Source: Nitrosopumilus sp. (lineage in GTDB: Archaea; Thermoproteota; Nitrososphaeria; Nitrososphaerales; Nitrosopumilaceae). From it: a DNA stretch of 64,000 nucleotides. The stretch spans positions 2,016,001 through 2,080,000 of the forward strand of contig OZ243974.1 of assembly GCA_965214775.1 (NCBI GenBank), given 5' to 3'. Shown here one piece after another: positions 5,522-62,223 of this stretch. Within the stretch, counting starts at the first letter, position 1, and the number at the start of each line of letters is the position of its first letter. A program made the position numbers and the translations under genes. Under the pieces are notes generated by a model. It was not told the DNA's origin. It worked only from the letters and a program-made list of their open reading frames with translations, and ran no database searches.

Positions 5522-6652
5522 TTACTTGTCTGTTTTCTCCCTGACCTCGGGTGGCATCTTGGATGCTGCAGCTGCTGCTGCTGCGGCCTCTGCCCGGGCC
5601 AGCTTGAGTTTGTACGTCTTGGGATCGTGTCCGGAGTACGGCGTCCTTGTCACGAGCATGGACCATACGATCCTGATCATCTTGGTTGCCACGTGCGTCC
5701 TGGCCACCATGGGCCTTGCGCTGTTCCTCTTCTTGGATCTTGCATGGATCCTTCCCATCCTCTCGTCGTATATGGCGGCCGTCCGCACAGTCTGTAGCAT
5801 CGCCCAGTTGCACCTGCGGTTGGATGTCTTTCTCATTTTGCCGTGGTACTCCCTGTCGCCGGACTGGTGAACCGTAGGACACATGCCGAACCACGCAACA
5901 AGCTTGCCCGGGGTCTTGAACCTGGCAATGTCCCCGATCTCAGATACCAGCAGCATGGCCGTAAACGAGTCGATTCCCGGAATGCTCATCAGGATCCTCG
6001 CATCCTCGCTGACGCTGGCCTGCGCCGCTATCCTTGTCTCGATGTCCGCGATCTCCTCTGTGATCTGCCTGACCCTTCTGGCATGCACGCCGAGAACCGC
6101 ATCATCGTTTGGGTCGCCAAGATTCAGGGCGAACAGCTGCCCGAGTCCCTTGTTGGAGTACACGTGCGACGAGTCGATCCTCTCGTCATACCTGTCCAGG
6201 AGGCTGTGGATCTGGTTGATCACGGCCGTCCTGTCCTGCACGAGGCCGATCCTGCAGCGCATCAGCTCCCTGACGCTCCGGAGTTCGGGCGGTGCCACGT
6301 AGCACTCGGGAACCATTCCGGCCCTCAGGGCGTTTGCAAGCTTTCTTGCGTCGATCGGGTCCGTCTTTACGTCCATGTCGGAGATTATCCGCATCTTGTA
6401 GGTGTTGGCAAGCTTGATTGGTATTCCCGCGGACTCGAATGCCTCGTAGGTCTTGAGCCACATGTTGCCCGTGGACTCGCAGACGGCCTGGCAGTTCTTT
6501 CCGCCGTAACTGAGCTTTGCCTTCCTGGCAAACATGCCTGCCTCTCTGGATGTGTTCTCGTATGACGTCTCTTCCAGGATCCTCTTTTTGTCGTCCATAA
6601 TGCACGCTACGCATTTTCTCTTTCCAATGTCTATTCCTATGCTGTATTGCAT
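5522..6652 (-). CDS. IS110 DEDD recombinase/transposase
   Basis: IGIDIGK, CESTG, KTDPIDA (RuvC-like DEDD); IPGI, GMCPTVHQSG (Tnp serine); ATG at 6652. Confidence 0.95.
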   Translation of the reverse strand: MQYSIGIDIGKRKCVACIMDDKKRILEETSYENTSREAGMFARKAKLSYGGKNCQAVCESTGNMWLKTYEAFESAGIPIKLANTYKMRIISDMDVKTDPIDARKLANALRAGMVPECYVAPPELRSVRELMRCRIGLVQDRTAVINQIHSLLDRYDERIDSSHVYSNKGLGQLFALNLGDPNDDAVLGVHARRVRQITEEIADIETRIAAQASVSEDARILMSIPGIDSFTAMLLVSEIGDIARFKTPGKLVAWFGMCPTVHQSGDREYHGKMRKTSNRRCNWAMLQTVRTAAIYDERMGRIHARSKKRNSARPMVARTHVATKMIRIVWSMLVTRTPYSGHDPKTYKLKLARAEAAAAAAAASKMPPEVREKTDK

Positions 6653-6674
6653 CTTTTCTCGCTTTCCTCTTTTT

Positions 6675-6797
6675 GGTGGATCAGAGGCTGCACACATCTA
6701 TCAGCACGCCGTGGTGCACGAACACTGCAGCTCGGAATTACCGCATTCAGAAGTCAGCGCGCGGGGCGCATGGGAAGACAGCGGTTGATCCACACCA
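6675..6797 (-). ncRNA. Predicted bridge RNA of IS110-A
   Basis: Outer stem GUGGAUCA/UGAUCCAC enclosing loop 1 (guides GUCUUCCCA, ACUUCUG = target halves) and loop 2 (GUGUUCG, AUAGAUG = donor-junction halves). Confidence 0.85.
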
Positions 6798-14225: not shown

Positions 14226-14332
14226 CTTCATTCAAAGATATTCCGCCAAGATCAACTGGCTGAAATTTTGTAACCATATCAGTAGACGCTATATGAAATC
14301 TTATCTGTATCCTGTGATATACTATTACTGTT

Positions 14333-14450
14333 GGGCCTGAGAGTCGATCGGAACTTACCATGTACAAGGGTGTTCAGTAGACTGACTCGTAACAGCAGGC
14401 GGAAAGCAATGTACCGCGCAGAAGACGGTGAATGGAAGATTCCGCCCGGA
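14333..14450 (+). ncRNA. Predicted bridge RNA of IS110-B
   Basis: GAGUC/GACUC stem enclosing AUCGGAACU (14347-55) and UCAGUAG (14374-80); GCGGAA/UUCCGC stem enclosing donor-like AUGGAAGA. Confidence 0.78.
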
Positions 14451-14482
14451 TCAGGCATTTTGATCAGAAAGGAGGTGATAAC

Positions 14483-15562
14483 ATGATCAGCGTAGGAATA
14501 GACGTACACAAAAAGACATGCGTTGCAGCAGTAAAGGATGACTCTGGCAAGCTGCTAGAGCGATCCAAGTTTGAGAACAGCGTTTTGGCAACAACGAATT
14601 TTGCAACATATCTCAAGGAACAATACTGCGGACAGCTGCCAATAAAGGCAGTATGCGAGTCCACTGCCAACTACTGGATTATCGTACATGACACGCTTGA
14701 GGACTGCGGGATAGACACCGTGCTGGTGCATCCGGCAAAGGTCAAGGTGATAGCGCACGCCAAGATAAAGGACGACCGCGTAGATGCAAATATACTTGCC
14801 GACCTGCTCAGAGCAGACATGCTGCCAGAGTCGTTTGTGCCTGACAAGCACTACAGGGACCTCAGAATGCTGGGCAGGACCAGAACCGGCAAGACGGCAG
14901 AAGCCACCAGATGCAAGAACAAGATACACGCCATACTTGCAAAGTATGACTATGACCTGCCCACGCACAGCACGTTTACGATTTCTGCCATACAGCACAT
15001 CCAAGACGGGATAAAAATGTCAGAGATTGACGCGGCAACTGTGAAGATGTACCTTGATGACATCAAGAGGATACAGGATCAGATAAGGGATCTGGAGCGC
15101 AGCATTGCCTCTGTATCCGAAAGCGATACGAGGGCCAAGACGATTATGACCATGCCTGGAATAAGCCATGTCATTGCACTGACGATAATCTCTGAGATAG
15201 TCGATGTCAAGAGGTTTGCCACTCCAGAGAAGCTCGTCTCGTATGCAGGGCTGACTCCCTCGCGCAGGGACAGCGCAGACAGACACAAAGGAGGCGGCAT
15301 AACAAAGCAGGGATCCGTGTGGCTGCGCCAGGCCATGGTCAACTCGGCCACAGTCGCAGTACGAAACGACCCAAGGCTTGGTTCGATATATGAAAGGATA
15401 GGAAAGAGACGTGGATGGCAAAAGGCAAAGATTGCAGTTGCAAGACACATGCTGGAGATAATCTGGCACATGCTGACAACCGAAGAGGAGTACCGCACTC
15501 AGAACAAGGCTCTCACGCAGAGAAAGTATAAGAGGATGCATCGCATAGCAACATTGTCCTGA
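14483..15562 (+). CDS. IS110 DEDD recombinase/transposase
   Basis: SD GGAGGTGA; VGIDVHK, CESTA, KDDRVDA, MPGI, AGLTPSRRDS. Confidence 0.95.
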   Translation: MISVGIDVHKKTCVAAVKDDSGKLLERSKFENSVLATTNFATYLKEQYCGQLPIKAVCESTANYWIIVHDTLEDCGIDTVLVHPAKVKVIAHAKIKDDRVDANILADLLRADMLPESFVPDKHYRDLRMLGRTRTGKTAEATRCKNKIHAILAKYDYDLPTHSTFTISAIQHIQDGIKMSEIDAATVKMYLDDIKRIQDQIRDLERSIASVSESDTRAKTIMTMPGISHVIALTIISEIVDVKRFATPEKLVSYAGLTPSRRDSADRHKGGGITKQGSVWLRQAMVNSATVAVRNDPRLGSIYERIGKRRGWQKAKIAVARHMLEIIWHMLTTEEEYRTQNKALTQRKYKRMHRIATLS

Positions 15563-15627
15563 TTCGGAACATCACGCTGGCAAGGGTCCACGGTAGGATT
15601 AGGTACGATTTCATATGGGAGTTCCTA

Positions 15628-16723: not shown

Positions 16724-16883
16724 GTCCACCTCCCGTCCTTGCTTGTTATCTCGTGCAGGAACGCGGTTCCCGCCGGCAGTTCCTTCCTTCCTTTCATACG
16801 TCTGTATGGGACTGGCAGGATCTTGGATCCTTTGGTTGAAGAAAATCGTCCCTTTTGTGATCAATTGGTAGCCGAGGATACTA
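16724..16883 (-). mobile_element. 5' fragment of IS630 element (22454 family)
   Basis: Homologous to 23440-23588, ends ...GAGGATACTA followed by CG. Confidence 0.85.
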
Positions 16884-17039
16884 CGGAATCTCCCATTCAC
16901 CGCCTGCGCGGCACGTTGCTTTCCGCCTGCTACTGCGAGTCAGCCTACTGAGCACCCTTGTACATGGCAAGTTCCGATCGACTCTCAGGCCCAACAGTAA
17001 TGTTGGATCACAGGATACGGATAAGATTTCATATAGCGT
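16884..17039 (-). mobile_element. Orphan IS110-B left end with bridge RNA (inverted second copy)
   Basis: Reverse complement closely matches 14286-14444; flank CTACTG = CAGTAG target half. Confidence 0.88.
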
Positions 17040-17282
17040 CTACTGAGATGGGCGATTATTTGAGATAGACACGGCGTACGGTTGTAACAGGTCGGGCTCT
17101 GGAAGCTCAGGCGTGAATCTTGCAATCCCGGAGGTCACTAGGGCAGCACCTCCAACCAGCAGGCTGATTTGGAAGAATCACAACACATAAAGATCGTTGG
17201 ATCTGCCTTTCCGGTATTGATCGGGGATCCTAGCATTACGGACGTGGATTGGAACAATCCCGACGTGATCCGCCTGTTTGAA

Positions 17283-33449: not shown

Positions 33450-34703
33450 GTAAGGGTTTACCCCATCCCGAAGATACGACGTAAATAGGCATGATCGTGA
33501 GAGCCCTGATTGACAGCATCGCCTGAGAGGTGATCCGAAATTAGAAATCGAGTGCCCCGTCCGCAGCCGTTCTGCTGCCGCCACTCAGGCCGCAGCAGCG
33601 ATTCTGGCCAACGCCCTATCGTTGACCAGTCCGCACACGATACTGTTGGCAAGGTCGTACTTTTTGAGTGGGTTTCGGTACCGGTCGCCCATGATCCTGT
33701 ATGTTTTGACCCTGCGTATGGTGTTCTCCACGTACACGCGTATCTTTGAGTGCGTGATATTGTACTCTTTTTCCGCATCAGTGAGCTTGCCGCCCGGTTT
33801 TTTCTTGATTGGGAGTATGACGTCCGTGCCTGCATCCACTGACTGTGCTCCCTGGTATCCGCGGTCCATGTAGTGACGCAGCTTTGTGCTCTTTTGTTGT
33901 TGTTGCGGCGCATCACCATCCCCGCCGCCGCCGGGACACTTTTTCTCTTTCTCTTTCTCCTTTCTTTGGTCGTACCGGAACGTGGGATGCCTCATCTGGT
34001 ACATTGTGATGTCGTTTACGCGTCCCGGAGAGTGGGGCGTCTTGTGCACTATGAGTCCGTGAATGTTGGTGGTATACTGGACCTTGACTGTGTGCGTGCC
34101 TGCCTTGCCTGAATAGTGCGATCTCTCCATGTCCTTTCTCTTGGGCCTGCATATCTTTTGCTCTGAGGCATCTGTCAGGCAGACAAGTTCTGGAAGTACG
34201 TCCATTAGCTCCTCTACTGAGGATATTCTCTTGGTGCCCGAATAGATCTTTTCGGGGATCGACAGGCACTGCTTGAGAACCGGCGCAATCCTGTCAATTG
34301 TGCGCGAGACTGATGCCTGTCCAATGCCGAACATGGCAGATGCCACGTCCTGCGTGACGTACGTCCTGTAGTAGAACAGGGACAGCAGAAGACTCTCCTT
34401 TAGGTTCAGGGCAGTCGGGCGTCCTGCACCGATGTCACGCTTGCGGTCTTTTTTGGCAGAAAGCAGCCTCTTTCTGTCCATCTTTGGGTGTTTTTTTGCC
34501 ACCTTTGCATACAACAAATCAAATTCGGGGGCAGTCATGCCGGCAAACATCCTGAATGTCCGGGGGTTTTTTGATAATTTATCAAACAACTTCATGAATT
34601 ATGTACCTTTTGCCTGCATTTGGATCGGGTTGGTGTACAATATGTGCCCATTTGATCAAAATTTGCTAATTTCGAATCAACTCTCTGAGGGGTAAACTCA
34701 TAC
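33450..34703. mobile_element. IS66 family-1 MITE expanded by an internal IS
   Basis: GTAAGGGTTTACCCC / GGGGTAAACTCATAC; 9-bp TSD GTCGGCTTT. Confidence 0.9.
33526..34684 (-). mobile_element. IS5-like (DDE_Tnp_4 + HTH) element, transposase 33585-34595
   Basis: TIR AGAG.TGAT.CGAAATTAG; 3-bp TSD CTG; DASE, YSGK, DRGYQG, RVYVE. Confidence 0.88.
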
Positions 34704-55416: not shown

Positions 55417-56669
55417 GCAAGACCAGCAAGAAAAAAAAGTCAGAGTACACGAGACCTCCGGAATACTATGCCGAGTACGAGAAAAAAAGGAGAGAGGACA
55501 GCAAGAGGTGCGGCATCGGAATCAAAAAGATCCGCAAGATCCTCCTGTCCCTCCTCCATAACACAGAGCAAGAGGATGAAATTCCCTATCTTCTGTGCGT
55601 ACTCGACATGGAGTACCGCGGAAACTCGTATCGCAGACACGTCGAATACATGGAGTCGAATCCTGGTTCAACTAACATGTACGGGCTCAAAAAGGTTCCG
55701 GCCAAGTCGACACTGCATGATGCAGCCGTAAGGATAGCTGCCTGGGACAAGTCGGTGCTAAGATCGGTACTCTCAGAACAGGCAGGCGCAGACGCCAGGG
55801 GAACGTTGCTTGGCGACTCTAGCGGTTTCTCCATAATGAGATACCACACATGGGAGGACGCAAAGAAGGGCGTCATATCCAGGCAGATGTTTGCCAAGCT
55901 GCACATACTGTTGGCCCCGCACGGCAAGATTGCCGCCTGCGAGGTGACGCCGGGCGAATTCCATGATTCCCCGGTGTTCCGTAACGAGCTGCTACCGCAG
56001 GTTCCCAACGGCACAGGACACGTGATCCTGGATGCCGCATACGACTCGTATGAGAACTGCAGGGTCATAGCCGACGGAGGCAGAACCCCAGTGATATGTC
56101 CGCGTATAGGATATACGGTTCACGGGTTCAACGCCCGCTCCAAGATGCTAAGATGGCACAAAAAGGACCCCGAGGGATTCGAGAAGACGTACCACCAGCG
56201 CAGCCTCGTTGAGTCGGCCTTCTCGTCGATAAAGGCAAGGTTTGACTCCACGGTGCGCGCCATGTCGCTTCCGATGCAGTCGCTCAGGCTTACCCTCAAG
56301 GTATTCTGCTACAATCTGGTCAGCTAGGATCCATAATGCCGGTACGGTGGAATCGTCCGGCTAGCGGATGCTATGCAGTATGACGTCAAAACACGGGCCA
56401 TAACTGCACAATGCGGGCCGGAGTGCGGATTCGTCTCTATGTTTGCAGTCATTGCGCCATGATTTTGTACAAATCTCCCCGGAAATCACGTCCTAAAATC
56501 ACGATTCCGGACAACGCCGTATAGTGCGCACAGTTGAAATCCGAACACTTTCTATCGAAATAGACACGATATATCAAAATTAGTCCGTTTTTTTATAAGT
56601 TGACTACAGCTTTGTCATGACAGGGTACCTGCGTCCCACATTCCATACGTATCGCCTCCCACAGCCAGC

Positions 56670-58083
56670 TAGTTTGTTGCATAACCCTTCCTAAAATTTG
56701 AAATCTGACCGAAAATCACCAAAATGATCAACTAATTCTGACCGAAAAAGTAATGGATCATGAGGATGCCTCGTATGGTATACATTGGCACACACGGACA
56801 ATGCAAAGTACGTAGAGAGAGGGGCAGGCCTGGTCGTCAAGTACGACCCCGGCTGGGAGAAGGATCTCAAGGTTGCCAACCGCCACAAGGAGGGCGCCCC
56901 GTTCCTGTACGCCGAAGGCATGATAATGGCCGCAGCCGCCCTCAGGACCGCATTCATGATAAAATACAGGCAGCTGTCAGGCATGTTCGAGGAGATGCTA
57001 AAGGGTGCGGACTCGCCGTGTTACACCACGATATTCAGAAGGATGCAGAAGCTTGACGTCGACATTGCAGAGAACATAATTACGGTGCGCGACAAGACCT
57101 GTAACCTGGTCATGATAGCTGACGCCACGGGCCTCAAGCAGCACAACCGGGGCGAGTGGATACGCAAGAAATGGAAGGTAAGGCGAGGATTCGTCAAGAT
57201 GCACCTGATGGTTGATGCAGACACCAAGCAGGTGCTTGCAGTATCTGTCACAAGTGATGCAGTAGGCGACAGCACGGAACTGCCGGCACTGCTTGAGGAG
57301 GCGGCCAAGAACATCAAGAAGGAAGAGGAAGAAGAGGAGCAGAACCGCACCGACAGCGCGGATGCAGTCAAGAACATCAAGAAGGAAGAGGAGCAGAACC
57401 GCACCGACAGCGCGGATGCAGTCAAGAACATCAAGAAGGAAGAGGAAGAAGAGGAGCAGAACCGCACCGACAGCGCGGATGCAGTCAAGAACATCAAGAA
57501 GGAAGAGGAGCAGAACCGCACCGACAGCGCGGATGCAGTCAAGATCCCCAACATGCTTGCAGACGGGACATCGCCGCTGGCTGTACTCGGCACCGGCGCG
57601 AATCCAGATATACCGGGAAAGATCCTGCCTGCAGACGGCGCATACGGCTCAAGGAAAAACGTAGCCGAGTGCCACAAACGCGGCATAAAACCGCTCATAC
57701 GGCTTTTGACAAGTTGCAATGCAAAGGGCAAGGGCACCGGCGACAAGTGGGGCCGGCTGGTGCGATGGCAGCTCGGGGGCGGCCCCGAGGTGCCGGTGGG
57801 TGATCTCTCAAAGGAGGAAAGACAGGAGAACCTGCGGTACTGGAAGAGCACGGTCGGCTTTGGCAGCAGATGGATCGTCGAGATCGTGATATCGGCCATA
57901 AAGCGTATGTTCGGCGAGGGCGTAATGGCCCTCAAGTGGTCCAATATAGTGCAGGAAGTAAATCTGAGGATATGGCTGTACAACAAGTGGATCGCAGAGG
58001 CGGTGGCTGCCGTGTAGGGACCGGGCGCCGGTCATGATCCAGGCGGACTAACTTGGCTCTAGTCGGAGTTATGCAACAAACTA
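56670..58083 (+). mobile_element. IS5-family (IS903-like) element, transposase 56785-58017
   Basis: TIR TAGTTTGTTGCATAAC; 8-bp TSD CAGCCAGC; four internal 63/54-bp repeats. Confidence 0.93.
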
Positions 58084-58162
58084 CAGCCAGCTCGTGGTTT
58101 ATATAGTGAAATGATTTTCGGATGCTAGAGGTTCAAGCTAGTGTGCGGTACGGCAAGCAGAA

Positions 58163-58874
58163 ATGAGCGATTACAAAAAAAAAAACAATCCTTGGTAAAC
58201 TAAAGTACCATTGCAAAAAGTGCGTCCTTACCACCATCCCGGGGTCACGTTCGGTTCATTTGTTCTTGCATACGAAACTACTACGTGGGTATCTTCCTTC
58301 TAACGCAACAGTCGCACAGGTAAAGTCGACAATACCGGATTTATTCGAAGGCAAATATTCCAGCGTCCTGTACATAGGTGCGAGTTACCTGAGACAACAC
58401 TTTCTGGACGACTTTGTACGCATGTATGATCGTGTCGTAGTGCTTGAGATCGATAAGAAAAACGCAGAATATGTCAGGCAGAAATTCGACCTGCCGGGAG
58501 TTACCGTGGTATGCGGTGACGTACGCAATACAGCGGACTTGATGGACGGAGAGGGAATGGGGGGGCGGCGGCGGTTCGATGCATGCTTCTTTTACCACGG
58601 TTTGGAACACCTGCCCAAGGAGGATGTCGCTGATGTGCTAAACACGCTTGAATCCATAACAGATCATATAATCGTGCTTGGAATGCCATACGGCCATTAT
58701 GAGCAGGATTCTGAATACGGGAACGTATACGAAAGACACCTTTGGGACATCTATCCGGACGACATGCACCGGCTGGGATATCGAACCTACACGATAGGGG
58801 ACGTAGACGACACCTCATCAAACATGATTGCTTGGAAGCACACCGGTAAGAAGACCTCTGGACTCAAAAAGTAG
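58163..58874 (+). CDS. Class I SAM-dependent methyltransferase-like protein, 5' end frameshifted at A11 tract
   Basis: VLYIGA, VLEID, GDV, LEHL; ATG 58163 in frame only if tract is A10. Confidence 0.75.
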
Positions 58875-58934
58875 CCTGATGACGGTGTGGATCCCGTGCT
58901 TTCCTTTGTATAAGACATTCCATATAACACACTC

Positions 58935-59126
58935 CCCCTTTTTGATCAAAGTGTGTGCGCCCAACTGAACGGAAAACTCCCATTCGCCCTCGATTATGTG
59001 GCATTTCGTCGTCCGCCTGCTCTGAGCCAGTCTCATACACGCCCTCATATGTGGCAAGGTTACTTCGGCTCCTGGGCCCAACACGGATAATATGGCGTCC
59101 GCTACGGATAAGATTTGATATAACGT
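58935..59126 (-). mobile_element. IS110 left end C with bridge-RNA-like NCR and no transposase
   Basis: Homologous to 14286-14475 and 61970-62152; flank GTATGAG repeated inside the stem-enclosed loop. Confidence 0.78.
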
Positions 59127-59140
59127 CTCATACGTTTTTT

Positions 59141-60226
59141 ATGTGTGATAGCCACCAAAATGTCACGTTGAGACTGTTGTGCGTCTGCCAGGAATCAAAA
59201 TTACTTCCTGAACGGGAGATCATCGAAAACCTAGGGGAATACTCGATAGCGTGGAAGATCGTCGGCACGAGTCAGTTCCTTGAAAAGGGCGTCAGAAGAC
59301 TGCCCATACTAAACAGAACAAAAAAGAAAAAATTCGAAAGGCTGCTAGATGAGTTCAACCCCGATTTTGTCATGCTGGACAGTCCAAGCGAGCTGGGGCC
59401 TATTGCAGCCGGCAAAAAAATACCGGTGCTGGTGTATTTCTGGGACAACTGGTCGTACCGGGAAATGGAAAGGGACAAGATGGTTTATCGCAGCATGTAT
59501 CATGCCGTACGGGCCCGCGTGATGAATCCCTGCCTGAAAAGGGCCTCCGTCATACTTGCCGAGACTGACTCCGTAGCCGATACCATAAGGGAGCACCATC
59601 CCCGAAGCAGCGTGACGACGTTCCCCTATTCCAGCATAGATACGGACTATTGGAGCGGCGACGGGCGCAATGGCAGGGGCATGGCGCTGAGACATCCGTG
59701 CGTGGGCCTGTTGCAGCATGCCAACGAGTGGTTCAAGGCAAAGGAGATGCTCATCCTGCCCCGGGTCGTCGAGGCGCTCCCACACGTAACATTCTACTGG
59801 GCCGGCGACGGGCGGTACCGCGACAGGATACTGGGGCCGCTGGCCGGATACGACAACTTTGAGTGGCTGGGGGCACTCGAATACCCCGACAGGGTCAGGG
59901 ACTATCTCTCCTCGATCGACATATACGGCCTTGCCAGCGCCATCGAAATGTCGCCGTACTCGCTAAAACAGGCCATGTCCATGGGCGTGCCGGCGATCGT
60001 CACAGATAGTGACTACATATCAGCAACGATGCTGGACGGTAAGACGGGGTTTCTGGTCAGACGGGGGGATCATGAGGGATGGATAGAAAGGATCTTGCTG
60101 CTGCTAGGTGACGTAGAGAGGGCGCAGGAGGTGGGGAGGCAGGGGCGCAGGTTTGTACGGGACAGCTGGGACAGCAGGCTGGCAGCAGAAAAGCTTGTCG
60201 CCATCCTCAAAAGCGTCAGGTCGTAA
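59141..60226 (+). CDS. Glycosyltransferase family 4
   Basis: WAGDG, EMSPYSLKQAMSMGVP, GKTGFLV; last codons replaced by IS66 end; start uncertain. Confidence 0.87.
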   Translation: MCDSHQNVTLRLLCVCQESKLLPEREIIENLGEYSIAWKIVGTSQFLEKGVRRLPILNRTKKKKFERLLDEFNPDFVMLDSPSELGPIAAGKKIPVLVYFWDNWSYREMERDKMVYRSMYHAVRARVMNPCLKRASVILAETDSVADTIREHHPRSSVTTFPYSSIDTDYWSGDGRNGRGMALRHPCVGLLQHANEWFKAKEMLILPRVVEALPHVTFYWAGDGRYRDRILGPLAGYDNFEWLGALEYPDRVRDYLSSIDIYGLASAIEMSPYSLKQAMSMGVPAIVTDSDYISATMLDGKTGFLVRRGDHEGWIERILLLLGDVERAQEVGRQGRRFVRDSWDSRLAAEKLVAILKSVRS

Positions 60227-61774
60227 GAGTTTACCCCTCAGGCGACGTTTCCAGTCAGGGTCTTGGCGACCATCTCACTCACGTTACACCCCTGGGCGCG
60301 CCAGTTCATCGTACACGTCATCAGTACGGTGAACATCTCCATGCCCTCCATGGTACGGAGTCCCTGGAATATCTTGCGCGCAATTACGGACGGCCTCAGC
60401 ATGCGCTCGGCCAGGTTGTTGGTGGGCTCCATGCCCGGATACAGCACGAACGTGTACAGGTATTCTGAGGCATTCTCAAGCTTTGTGGCAAATTTTTTGC
60501 AACCTGCCTCCCTGAATGCTACGGCCAGCGCGCGTGTCTCGACTACCAGCATGTCGTGTTGTTGCTGCCTGACACCGTTCTTCTTCTACTCCGGTGGTGG
60601 TGGCCCCAGCCCCTTGGCAAAAAGAAATTTTTTCTTGAGGGCATCATACAGCGCGTGGGCCTGCCGGGAAGTCTTGCCGGCGTCCTTGGCCTCCCGGAGT
60701 ATGTGTGCCCAGCACCACTGCCTGATCTTGAATACGACATATACGCCGTACCCATCAACTGTAACTGGTTTATCATAATACGGAAAGTTCGTATCCACTA
60801 CGACCCTGGCCCTGCTGGGTGCGGCCAGCGTGTGGACGCCGGTCGTAGAGCCGTCCTTGTTCTTGCCCACTATCACCCATATGCGGGCCGTCCTGCCGTT
60901 GTATGGCATGGCAGTCTCGTCAATGTGCAGATAATCAGAATCCCGGATGGCCTGCTTGATGCCCTCTACGCTGGGCTTTATTGCCTTGGTGCAGGCCCTC
61001 AGGCACTGCAACACGCCTGCCTCTGAGACATCCATGTCCAGGATCTCAGAGCACATTGTGGCCGTTGCCTGTATGGAGGCAGGTGCCATGTGCATTGAGG
61101 TTATCATTCCCGTAATGTTTGGTCCAAACTCGGTTCCCTGCACGTTCCAGTCCCTGTCATCCTCGATTGACACGTGGCCGCAGTCGGCGCATTCGCGTTT
61201 GTATGCGGTGTACTGCTCTGTCGTGACCGGTTTGGGCTTCTTGGGGATCTCAGTCACGGTCTTTGAGAACATCCTTTCGGGCTTTTTCATGTTGGTGCTG
61301 TTGCACTTGTCGCACTTTTTGGGGCAGTGCTTTACAAACTCAGTTGGTTTTCTCTTGTGTGATACTCCCTTGTGTCCCGATTTGCGGCCCGGCTTTGCCT
61401 TTGCAGATGCCGGTACGTTGCCTGATGCCTTTGCAGCAGCAGTCTTTTTCTGTCTGGTAGGAATCGAGTTCTGCGAGGATGGGGTGTGCGGGTTCTCGTA
61501 ATATTTGATGTGCTATTTGAGCTGCTGGATTTCTGCCGTCAGCAGCACGACCTGTGTTGCAAGCTCGGCCTTCTCTGTGGCATCCTTGACTACTACCTGC
61601 TGCAGATCGGCGATGGTTTTGTCCTTCTTTCGGCACTCGGCTATGAGACGTGCAATCTCGTCGCGCAGTATCTTGACCTCCGAGCCTGATGACATGCATT
61701 TTCCTAGGTACTGCTATCTTATAGATCGGGTGGTCAGGAAGAATTCACCAAATAGGTAAGGGGTAAACTCTTAC
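60223..61774 (-). mobile_element. IS66 family-1 element, transposase pseudogene
   Basis: Near-identical inverted copy of 51673-53224 with premature stops (61513, 60586). Confidence 0.93.
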
Positions 61775-62152
61775 GTTCCACGTTGCCTCGCAGACTGTCT
61801 GGATCTTGCGTAGTGCATGTTCCCCTTTGATCTGCCCGGCAGACTTTCTTGCTGCATCGGCCGTGTTGGAAAACTCTATCTGTCCCAGAATCTTTGCGGA
61901 ATGGTTCTTGATGGCTGCTGTACGCGTCTTTTTATGAACGCCTATTCCCATGCTGATCATTGTATCGCCTCCTTTTTGATCAAAGTGTGTGTGCCCAACT
62001 GAACAGAAAACTTCCACCCACCCCTAGCATTTCGTTGTCCCCTCCCACTCTCAACCAGTCTCTTACATGCCCTCATATATGGCAGAAGTACTTGTTCCTG
62101 GGCCCAGCATGGATAATATGGCGTCCGCTATGGATAAGATTTGATATAACGT
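61775..62152 (-). mobile_element. Truncated IS110 element D (left end, NCR, ~62 codons)
   Basis: MISMGIGVHKK...VCEAT cut by IS66; flank GTACGAG; NCR guide GTAAGAG. Confidence 0.82.
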
Positions 62153-62223
62153 CTCGTACAGCAAGTGATCGAAAAAGCTAAAAAGAGGCAAATCCACCTA
62201 GACTTGATGAAAGATTTTAGCTG

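Follow-up and report, generated by a model that had tools for sequence, protein, structure and literature searches.

What is probably the remnant of an insertion sequence of the IS110 family lies between two genes of the archaeon Nitrosopumilus sp., in a window of 64,000 nucleotides (the whole stretch of DNA that was analysed) corresponding to positions 2016001-2080000 of the genome, which is a single contig of 2.83 Mb (G000; positions without this prefix are those of the window unless stated otherwise). The spacer is bordered by a methyltransferase-like gene with weak Pfam matches (Methyltransf_11, E 3.8e-4, 21.5 bits vs. a cut-off of 21.2; Methyltransf_25 below its cut-off) and by a glycosyltransferase gene (Table 1). 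Between them, the minus strand reads ...AAAAAAC, then GTATGAG, then ACGTTATATCAAATC (in a longer reading ...CACATAAAAAAC, GTATGAG and ACGTTATATCAAATCTTATCC...), that is, a 7-nt flank followed by the start of the left non-coding end (LE) of the element, as a preliminary description of this DNA had it. Also in agreement with that description, the homology to other copies ended 8 nt before the expected ATG of the transposase gene. A complete LE in this group comprises 200 nt (ACG... to ATG), of which the window copy keeps 193, with both loops of the putative guide RNA complete. The window copy lacks both a right end and a recombinase gene: no right end of the subfamily was found in the window, and no recombinase open reading frame (ORF) was present within or adjoining 58934-59133, so that the window copy is the fragment of a member and not a complete member. 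It is no assembly artefact, as contigs without errors from four DNA runs of two studies, which may include the source sample, spanned both of its boundaries (58056-58988 and similar contigs at the putative deletion junction; 59090-59443 and similar ones at the left boundary).

Table 1. Coordinates of the window copy, its parts and the neighbouring features (window positions; TIR, terminal inverted repeat; MITE, miniature inverted-repeat transposable element).
Feature	Position	Strand	Remark
Repeat unit (flank and LE fragment)	58934-59133	minus	Delimited by homology
GTATGAG, left target half with the AG core	59127-59133	minus	Equals the outermost 7 nt of an IS66/MITE-type TIR; unique DNA further upstream
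LE of IS110 subfamily A, positions 1-193	58934-59126	minus	Cut inside Shine-Dalgarno-like AAGGAGG
Sub-terminal inverted repeat ATATCAAAT	59113-59121	minus	Pairs with ATTTGATAT just inside the right end of subfamily A
Bridge-RNA scaffold	58959-59077	minus	Covariation; closing stem P0 encloses both loops
P0 stem GCCCAG / UUGGGC	59072-59077 / 58959-58964	minus	
Target-binding loop	59024-59071	minus	Outer stem GAGCC/GGCUC; hairpin UGCC...GGCG
Outer stem of target loop, GAGCC / GGCUC	59067-59071 / 59024-59028	minus	The two strands pair
5' strand of target loop, AGUAACCU	59057-59064	minus	Complementary to AG-GTTACT
3' strand of target loop, GUAUGAG	59032-59038	minus	Equals left flank and core
AC after 3' strand of target loop	59030-59031	minus	Equals the first two LE bases (handshake-like)
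Donor-binding loop	58969-59016	minus	Outer stem GCGGA/UCCGU; hairpin UGCC...GGCG
5' strand of donor loop, CGACG	59007-59011	minus	Bases 2-4 pair with LE positions 3-5
3' strand of donor loop, AAUGGGAG	58977-58984	minus	Equals the last 8 nt of the subfamily right end
UU after 3' strand of donor loop	58975-58976	minus	
Unique DNA, 59 nt	58875-58933	minus	Far side of the putative deletion junction; only self-match in the genome
Methyltransferase-like gene	58260-58874	plus	Stop codon 59 nt from the break; weak Pfam matches
Glycosyltransferase gene	ATG at 59141		8 nt from the flank, on the other side of the window copy
Intact subfamily-B element	14284-15619		376-aa ORF at 14432-15562; DEDD_Tnp_IS110 and Transposase_20
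IS66-like element, inverted pair, 1552 bp	51673/53224		Intact IS66-family transposase; NCBIfam transpos_IS66, 200 bits (cut-off 180)
IS66-like element, inverted pair, 1552 bp	60223/61774		Broken IS66 gene; Pfam DDE_Tnp_IS66, 6e-20
MITEs, inverted pairs	4138/4228 and 20232/20322		Each 91 bp apart

When 58850-59250 was compared with the window by BLAST, a match of 80.7% identity appeared at 61968-62159 and weaker ones at 14284-14403 and 17016-17041, and a 281-nt query matched the whole genome 24 times. Six genomic copies were 93-95% identical and two were 81% identical, all of them covering only the equivalent of 58934-59133 (E-value of the window copy to other copies, 6e-87), and eleven further matches were about 66-67% identical. 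These groups are referred to as subfamily A (including the window copy), A2 (the 81% copies) and subfamily B (66-67%). Because the same repeat directly precedes an IS110 gene in every full copy, ending at AAGGAGGTGATAAAATG upstream of the recombinase gene, the stretch was assigned to the LE of an IS110-family element. The recombinase of sister copies matched DEDD_Tnp_IS110 (PF01548, 7e-28), Transposase_20 (PF02371, 5e-23) and the NCBIfam model NF033542, "IS110 family RNA-guided transposase" (248 bits vs. a cut-off of 140). Three intact subfamily-B recombinase genes were counted in the genome and no intact subfamily-A transposase; the interrupted subfamily-A gene at G000 403938-405124 was 59% and 53% identical to the subfamily-B transposase.

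The guide scaffold was located upstream of the ATG in all copies, and the right end of subfamily B about 70 nt past the stop codon. Sub-terminal inverted repeats of 9 bp in A (ATTTGATAT/ATATCAAAT) and 10 bp in B (GATTTCATAT/ATATGAAATC) differed by a compensating G/C change, and an AG core was present at both junctions of complete copies (in A, GTACG-AG on the left, and GGG-AG followed by TTTACC on the right; likewise in B). The host is archaeal, its small-subunit (SSU) rRNA scoring 1459 bits with the archaeal model vs. 1097 with the bacterial one. A distant blastn search of a plasmid collection gave no match; a sigma-70 promoter scan gave 0 sites, its bacterial model being irrelevant for an archaeal host.

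Further occurrences of the family were recorded in the window. An LE-only subfamily-B fragment of about 159 nt with 89% identity lies on the minus strand at 16885-17050, with the flank TCTCAGTAG and a covariance-model match at 16869-16995. A second, unrelated IS110-family lineage is represented at 5522-6697 (minus strand) and at seven other G000 loci; it is 31-34% identical to the subfamily-B transposase and scored 232 bits with the NCBIfam model transpos_IS110.

The scaffold of the putative guide RNA covaried between copies. Fifteen non-identical LE cores (A, A2 and B) were aligned with MAFFT, and a model of four helices (P0, loop 1 with its outer stem and hairpin, and the loop-2 hairpin) was compared with controls in which the 3' partners were slid by 1-3 columns. 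Pairing was found in 99.3% of the cells vs. 26-42% after sliding, 6 of the 19 pairs changed on both sides, and RNAalifold found the same helices independently. The GAGCC/GGCUC stem, already described as a compensatory variant of the GAGUC/GACUC stem that the sister subfamily has, is truly compensatory, since columns 15-56 pair as U-A in eight and as C-G in seven of the 15 rows. For the outer stem of loop 2, the register of which differs between the groups (GCGGA/UCCGU in A, GGCGGAA/UUCCGCC in B), pairing was checked only by eye. Because most of the pair changes in this genome stem from a single split between A and B, a covariance model was built from the LEs and used to search 60 other genomes of the genus, five of which hold homologues. 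With these added (19 distinct rows, in an alignment that was fitted to the covariance model and leans towards it), 94.9% of the cells paired vs. 14-40% after sliding, and 10 of the 19 pairs changed on both sides.

The fold of the single sequence was uninformative (minimum free energy -50.6 kcal/mol, z = 0.97 vs. shuffles), and for this reason the structure rests on the alignments; an Rfam search of the region gave no family at the gathering threshold and none at E values up to 10. Both results would suit an explanation without any RNA guide, in which the LE acts solely as leader or promoter of the transposase gene and the likeness of the flanks reflects a site preference determined by the protein. 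That explanation can also draw on the fact that transcription of the LE is itself presumed from sequence. It has to contend with the compensatory changes in the stems and with the behaviour of the guide segments at the insertion sites.

Guide segments corresponded to the insertion sites of their own elements. The two loop strands were hypervariable on a fixed scaffold, and the 7 nt of the 3' strand of loop 1 equalled the 7 nt to the left of the element. Over 29 distinct combinations of element and flank (from G000, G002, G055, G058 and G062), an average of 4.31 of the 5 variable positions agreed between guide and left flank, vs. 1.75 for non-cognate pairs; the match was perfect in 14 combinations and extended to at least 4 positions in 26. 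When one representative was taken for each of 13 guide classes, none of 20000 permutations reached the observed total. The right flank was compared in ten subfamily-B copies with a downstream right end located by script. In seven of them, the reverse complement of the 8-nt 5' strand agreed with the right flank from the core onwards over 5-7 leading bases, for example AGTTCC, AGATCAT and AGATT (AGTTCCGA vs. AGTTCCTA; AGATCATA vs. AGATCATG; AGATTAAA vs. AGATTGAG); in the remaining three (G000 2634799, 2751228 and 2787936), which are nested or possibly carry non-cognate ends, the agreement covered the core and 0-1 base.

The donor loop fitted the ends of the element in a comparable way. Its 3' strand, AAUGGGAG, equalled the terminus of the right end in both A and B (in A, ...GATATGGGAG followed by TTTACC), and bases 2-4 of its 5' strand were complementary to LE positions 3-5 in 22 of the 24 distinct combinations, which represent four LE variants. 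Pairing of this 5' strand with the core, as in the target loop, was looked for and not found, only the three bases being paired. The handshake bases of the target loop equalled LE positions 1-2 in 19 of 25 combinations, and those of the donor loop equalled the predicted positions 1-2 of the right target in 11 of 21 (one of the two bases in the window copy). A site preference of the protein would hardly account for guide segments that change with the flanks on a fixed scaffold, nor for a layout that reproduces the pairing scheme published for IS621, apparently down to the handshake bases; the absence of an RNA guide was rated the least probable of the explanations considered.

The guides of subfamily A, GTA(A/T)GAG and AGTAAACT, specify GTAAG-AG-TTTACT, and the predicted target is the outer 12 bp of the TIR of 1552-bp IS66-like elements and of 91-bp MITEs. 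Nine matches to GTAWGAGTTTAC were found in the window, where 0.01 were expected by chance; one of them is the TIR variant GTATGAGTTTAC on the minus strand at 34692-34703, which had been pointed out beforehand and was recovered there. In the genome, the repeat GTA.GAGTTTAC occurs 125 times, the fourth base being A in 60 (GTAAGAGTTTAC), C in 42 (GTACGAG..), T in 14 (GTATGAG..) and G in 9 (GTAGGAG..). Elements encoding an IS66 transposase are bounded by the repeat GTAAGAGTTTACC.

All 11 LE junctions of A and A2 read GTA.GAG followed by ACGTTATATC, with unrelated DNA further upstream of each, and five right-end junctions (four besides that of the full element) read ...GATATG.GAG followed by TTTAC. 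These are the halves of the IS66 TIR that the preliminary description had expected in the flanks. The only A element complete at both ends (G000 403765-415395) lies between GTACGAG and TTTACCCCTCAGG (its right side is also given as TTTACCCC), which together make up the commonest variant of the repeat. Two sequences break this element up, a 93-bp MITE and a 10,157-bp insert that shows an 8-bp duplication. Because both kinds of junction and the flanks of this full element split the repeat at the same point, subfamily A inserts 7 bp inside the IS66/MITE terminal repeat, splitting it. The earlier view of the window copy as an IS110 LE that shares the scaffold of its neighbours and carries guides fitting the IS66/MITE TIR was therefore borne out by the 29 guide-flank combinations, the full A element and the five TTTAC junctions. 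The retargeting to the IS66 TIR is real, as that view had it, but it is not this copy's own and is a property of the whole subfamily.

The 10,157-bp insert (G000 405125-415281) has inverted GGAACTGGGAAGTTTACGG ends, the 8-bp duplication TCACGCAA and several long ORFs, and looks like a composite transposon or two insertion-sequence copies flanking cargo. The A2 copy (61775-62159 on the minus strand, and G000 1802019-1802397) comprises the LE and the first approximately 71 transposase codons; in the window, the 1552-bp IS66-like element at 60223-61774 cuts it off, and no part of it is left on the far side. Its junction and flank are duplicated elsewhere in the genome, and its 5'-strand guide differs (GTACTTCT). 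The full target predicted for A2, GTA.GAGAAGTAC, had 0 occurrences in the genome.

Taken together, a scheme can be proposed in which the LE of intact relatives, about 200 nt long and situated upstream of the DEDD/Tnp recombinase gene, would encode a two-loop bridge (seek) RNA. The 5' strand of its target loop (AGUAAACU) would pair, right of the insertion point, with the top strand and the 3' strand (GUA(A/U)GAG), left of it, with the bottom strand, both overlapping on the AG core, while the donor loop would contribute AAUGGGAG, equal to the last bases of the right end, and three bases pairing with LE positions 3-5. At the present locus, a subfamily-A element would have entered an IS66/MITE end in the spacer between the methyltransferase and glycosyltransferase genes. 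A later, probably single, deletion would then have taken away everything from LE 194 onwards, with the recombinase gene, the element's right end and what remained of the victim, joining the LE to unique DNA. The 7-nt flank and the way in which the other copies behave are the grounds on which we infer that an IS66/MITE repeat was entered; within 56500-60400, a search for degenerate IS66 repeats (at most 3 mismatches) found only the repeat at 60223.

The window copy is, in our judgement, likely to be the dead deletion relic of an archaeal subfamily-A insertion sequence of the IS110 family, and most likely inert. Homology did not continue past 58934: aligned to the longest A copy, the next 230 nt scored 19, no more than the mean of shuffled sequences (19.0), of which 106 in 200 scored as high. 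A degenerate continuation beyond this point was rejected on account of that score. The DNA past the break is unique in the genome, the sole such case among 13 A-type LE fragments. For the remaining 12, the DNA that follows is repeated, starting right at the break in 11 cases and at +41 in one; it is another repeat or insertion sequence in ten and the B-type transposase of a chimera in one, and one fragment is an internal deletion. Numbered from the G of the flank, their breaks lie at 33, 33, 61, 190, 209, 245, 263, 286, 305, 378, 378 and 1366, and that of the window copy at 200; the 13 fragments have 11 different breaks, the shared values belonging to a segmental duplicate (378) and a nested unit (33). 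The deletion relic that the preliminary description had offered as one of two readings therefore stands.

The chimera (G000 1100385-1100783, minus strand) consists of a subfamily-A LE with IS66-repeat guides followed by a truncated B transposase start, which is 93% identical to B over amino acids 9-81.

Both loop strands described beforehand and the retained donor guide were recovered in the window copy. Over LE 1-183, it departed from the consensus of the other five aligned A copies in 8 of the 183 positions. Four of these differences (LE positions 55, 68, 108 and 169) were private, and the divergence was within the range of the other copies (2-10 positions apart). One private A-to-C change lies in the guide (AGUAACCU vs. 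AGUAAACU in the five other copies) and breaks the match to the handshake bases of loop 2; it looks like decay. The change creates the 12-mer GTATGAGGTTAC, which the genome contains two times, each time at a MITE-type end.

The other reading offered beforehand, a guide-only mini-element, did not hold up: the locus had no right end, the right break was not repeated in a second copy, and there was no ORF-less copy among the 13 A-type LE fragments that shared the break at 200. In a related form, LE positions 1 to about 190 could have been fused to the last bases of the right end to give a non-autonomous element, mobilisable in trans, with a half-matched target (left side only). The junction does read GGGGGAG, compared with ATGGGAG at the right end, and ...GGGAG is directly followed by non-homologous DNA; insertion at half-matched sites has been reported for IS621 (bioRxiv 10.64898/2026.08.31.748434), and transposase-less derivatives of subfamily B, 478-487 bp long, are real and present at six places. 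The GGGGG could equally well be a mutated AAGGAGG of the LE, and the right end's sub-terminal repeat is missing. On the right side, the guide predicts GTTACT, which the flank, TGTGTTAT, does not match, and no other fragment with the same break accompanies this single copy. A mini-element of this kind is accordingly very unlikely.

The six subfamily-B derivatives have LE starts at G000 181547, 808415, 2726224, 2784518, 2787936 and 2831777 and look like mobilised mini-elements. They keep both ends, their own scaffold and codons 1-44 and 302-376 (the first 44 and the last 75), and their guides fit both flanks in five cases. The exception, at G000 2787936-2788413, is inserted in the target-loop guide of another subfamily-B copy, so that its right flank, ACTGACTCG, is the host copy's guide DNA, the sequence that follows the guide in the scaffold; here guide DNA itself mimics half a target.

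Several points weigh against the relic reading or against parts of it. The window copy has kept a complete two-loop scaffold and a variant guide with two exact 12-nt matches in the genome, which may indicate retained function, and one of its private changes preserves a P0 pair (A-U to G-U). Its original right flank is gone, and no empty site was recovered: the flanking genes had no DNA-level match in any of 40 related genomes (a single genome of the genus did match, within the LE only), and a paralogous glycosyltransferase locus (G000 1072807-1073470) was homologous only from about position 59195. As regards the RNA, the both-sided pair changes in this genome trace for the most part to the A/B split and so represent few independent events, and that RNA is made from these left ends is presumed from their sequence.

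The retained scaffold raises the possibility of an orphan guide gene, in which the complete bridge RNA would still be transcribed and used in trans by the intact B recombinase to bring IS110 donors into IS66/MITE ends of the GGTTAC variant. Besides the two complete loops and the two genomic occurrences of GTATGAGGTTAC, this would be in keeping with a donor guide that is identical in A and B, the right ends of both finishing in ATGGGAG, and with a TATA-like TTATAT within LE positions 4-9, which may make the junction of a circularised element dispensable for transcription; the bridge RNA of IS621 has been reported to work in trans (PMC11208160). Trans-retargeting has left no trace, 0 of 20 subfamily-B LE copies lying at a GTA.GAG flank. 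The left ends of A and B are only about 67% identical, the donor-loop bases fit the start of an A-type LE (GTT) and not of a B-type LE (GCT), and the A-to-C change leaves one of two matches to the copy's own handshake, compared with two of two in three other distinct A rows. We therefore consider an orphan guide improbable. Its fullest version, a guide-only locus at which an archaeal promoter in the LE drives a bridge RNA that directs the B recombinase to the two GGTTAC-variant ends in the genome, strikes us as quite improbable; if true, it would be a stand-alone RNA guide derived from a dead insertion sequence and still attacking a rival transposon family. As the probable relic of a dead element, the window fragment itself matters little, and it would be of interest only if orphan left ends were transcribed and used in trans.

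Two further observations were made around the locus. In three of the four runs, contigs ran from an insertion-sequence end at 58084 through 37 other letters into the IS66 repeat at 60223, skipping the 2.1-kb segment with the methyltransferase gene, the LE fragment and the glycosyltransferase gene. This junction is absent from G000 (as an exact 20-mer) and may represent a variant arrangement or a repeat of another organism. At 56785-58017, a plus-strand DDE_Tnp_1 transposase ORF contains near-identical internal repeats (...KKEEEEEEQNRTDSADAVKNI..., about four times) between the parts matched by Pfam.

Bridge and seek RNAs became known in 2024, for the most part from elements of bacteria, and IS4321 and IS5075 are reportedly an IS110-family precedent for the targeting of other transposons' terminal repeats. 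Such RNAs, their natural reprogramming and IS110 elements that target the terminal repeats of other transposons are thus already known. What is new is the archaeal member, the new victim (IS66/MITE ends) and the mirrored layout; at the level of titles and abstracts, no report of IS110 elements aimed at IS66 ends was found in the literature.

The closest agreement was with IS621 and the IS110 group, in which a non-coding end upstream of a DEDD/Tnp recombinase gene likewise gives rise to two internal loops (PMC11208160, PMC11208158). As reported there for IS621, one guide equals a target half with the core and the other is complementary to the second half with the core, the donor loop fits the element's ends, and two handshake-like bases follow the 3'-strand guide. 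In the published scheme, the 5' strand carries the left-target guide and the 3' strand the right-target guide together with the handshake, the RNA being sense to the "top" strand (PMC11208160, PMC11208158). Relative to the sense strand, the order of the target guides is reversed in the present family, with the result that its RNA and recombinase genes point the opposite way with respect to the CT core; when the complementary strand is read, the core is CT and the IS621 scheme is recovered exactly. The recombinase is only weakly similar to that of IS621 (49 bits to PDB 8wt6). Further differences from IS621 and the IS110 group, as these are described, are the archaeal host, a closing stem around both loops, the lack of an Rfam match and the sub-terminal repeats of 9-10 bp instead of 2-3 bp.

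Repeats of this length are within the 7-17 bp given for the IS1111 group (PMC11208160), unlike which the guide region is located upstream of the recombinase gene and not in a long right end downstream of it. The order of the two target-matching regions is reported to differ between IS1111-type and IS110-type seekRNAs (Siddiquee et al., PMC11187229). IS110-family elements aimed at the TIR of another transposon share with the present family a specific TIR target, sub-terminal repeats and the reversed guide order (PMC11187229); unlike in those elements as described, the non-coding region is upstream, and the victim is an IS66-like element or MITE in an archaeon instead of a bacterial Tn3-family transposon. 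Within the genome, the window copy resembles the 478-487-bp derivatives of subfamily B in having the same LE scaffold without a working transposase, and differs from them in being unique and without a right end, whereas the derivatives keep both ends and have matching guides at several sites.

The family thus combines an IS110-type upstream guide region with IS1111-like repeats of 9-10 bp and a reversed guide order, its genes being inverted with respect to the CT core of IS621, a conclusion that is better supported than the reading of the window copy as a guide-only locus. It provides a clean natural series in an archaeon, in which a single scaffold is combined with at least 13 different target guides, each of them at a matching site, and which is useful as natural reprogramming data. 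With a whole subfamily aimed at the terminal repeat of another transposon family, one insertion sequence would disable another, through a guide layout that is the mirror image of that of IS621.

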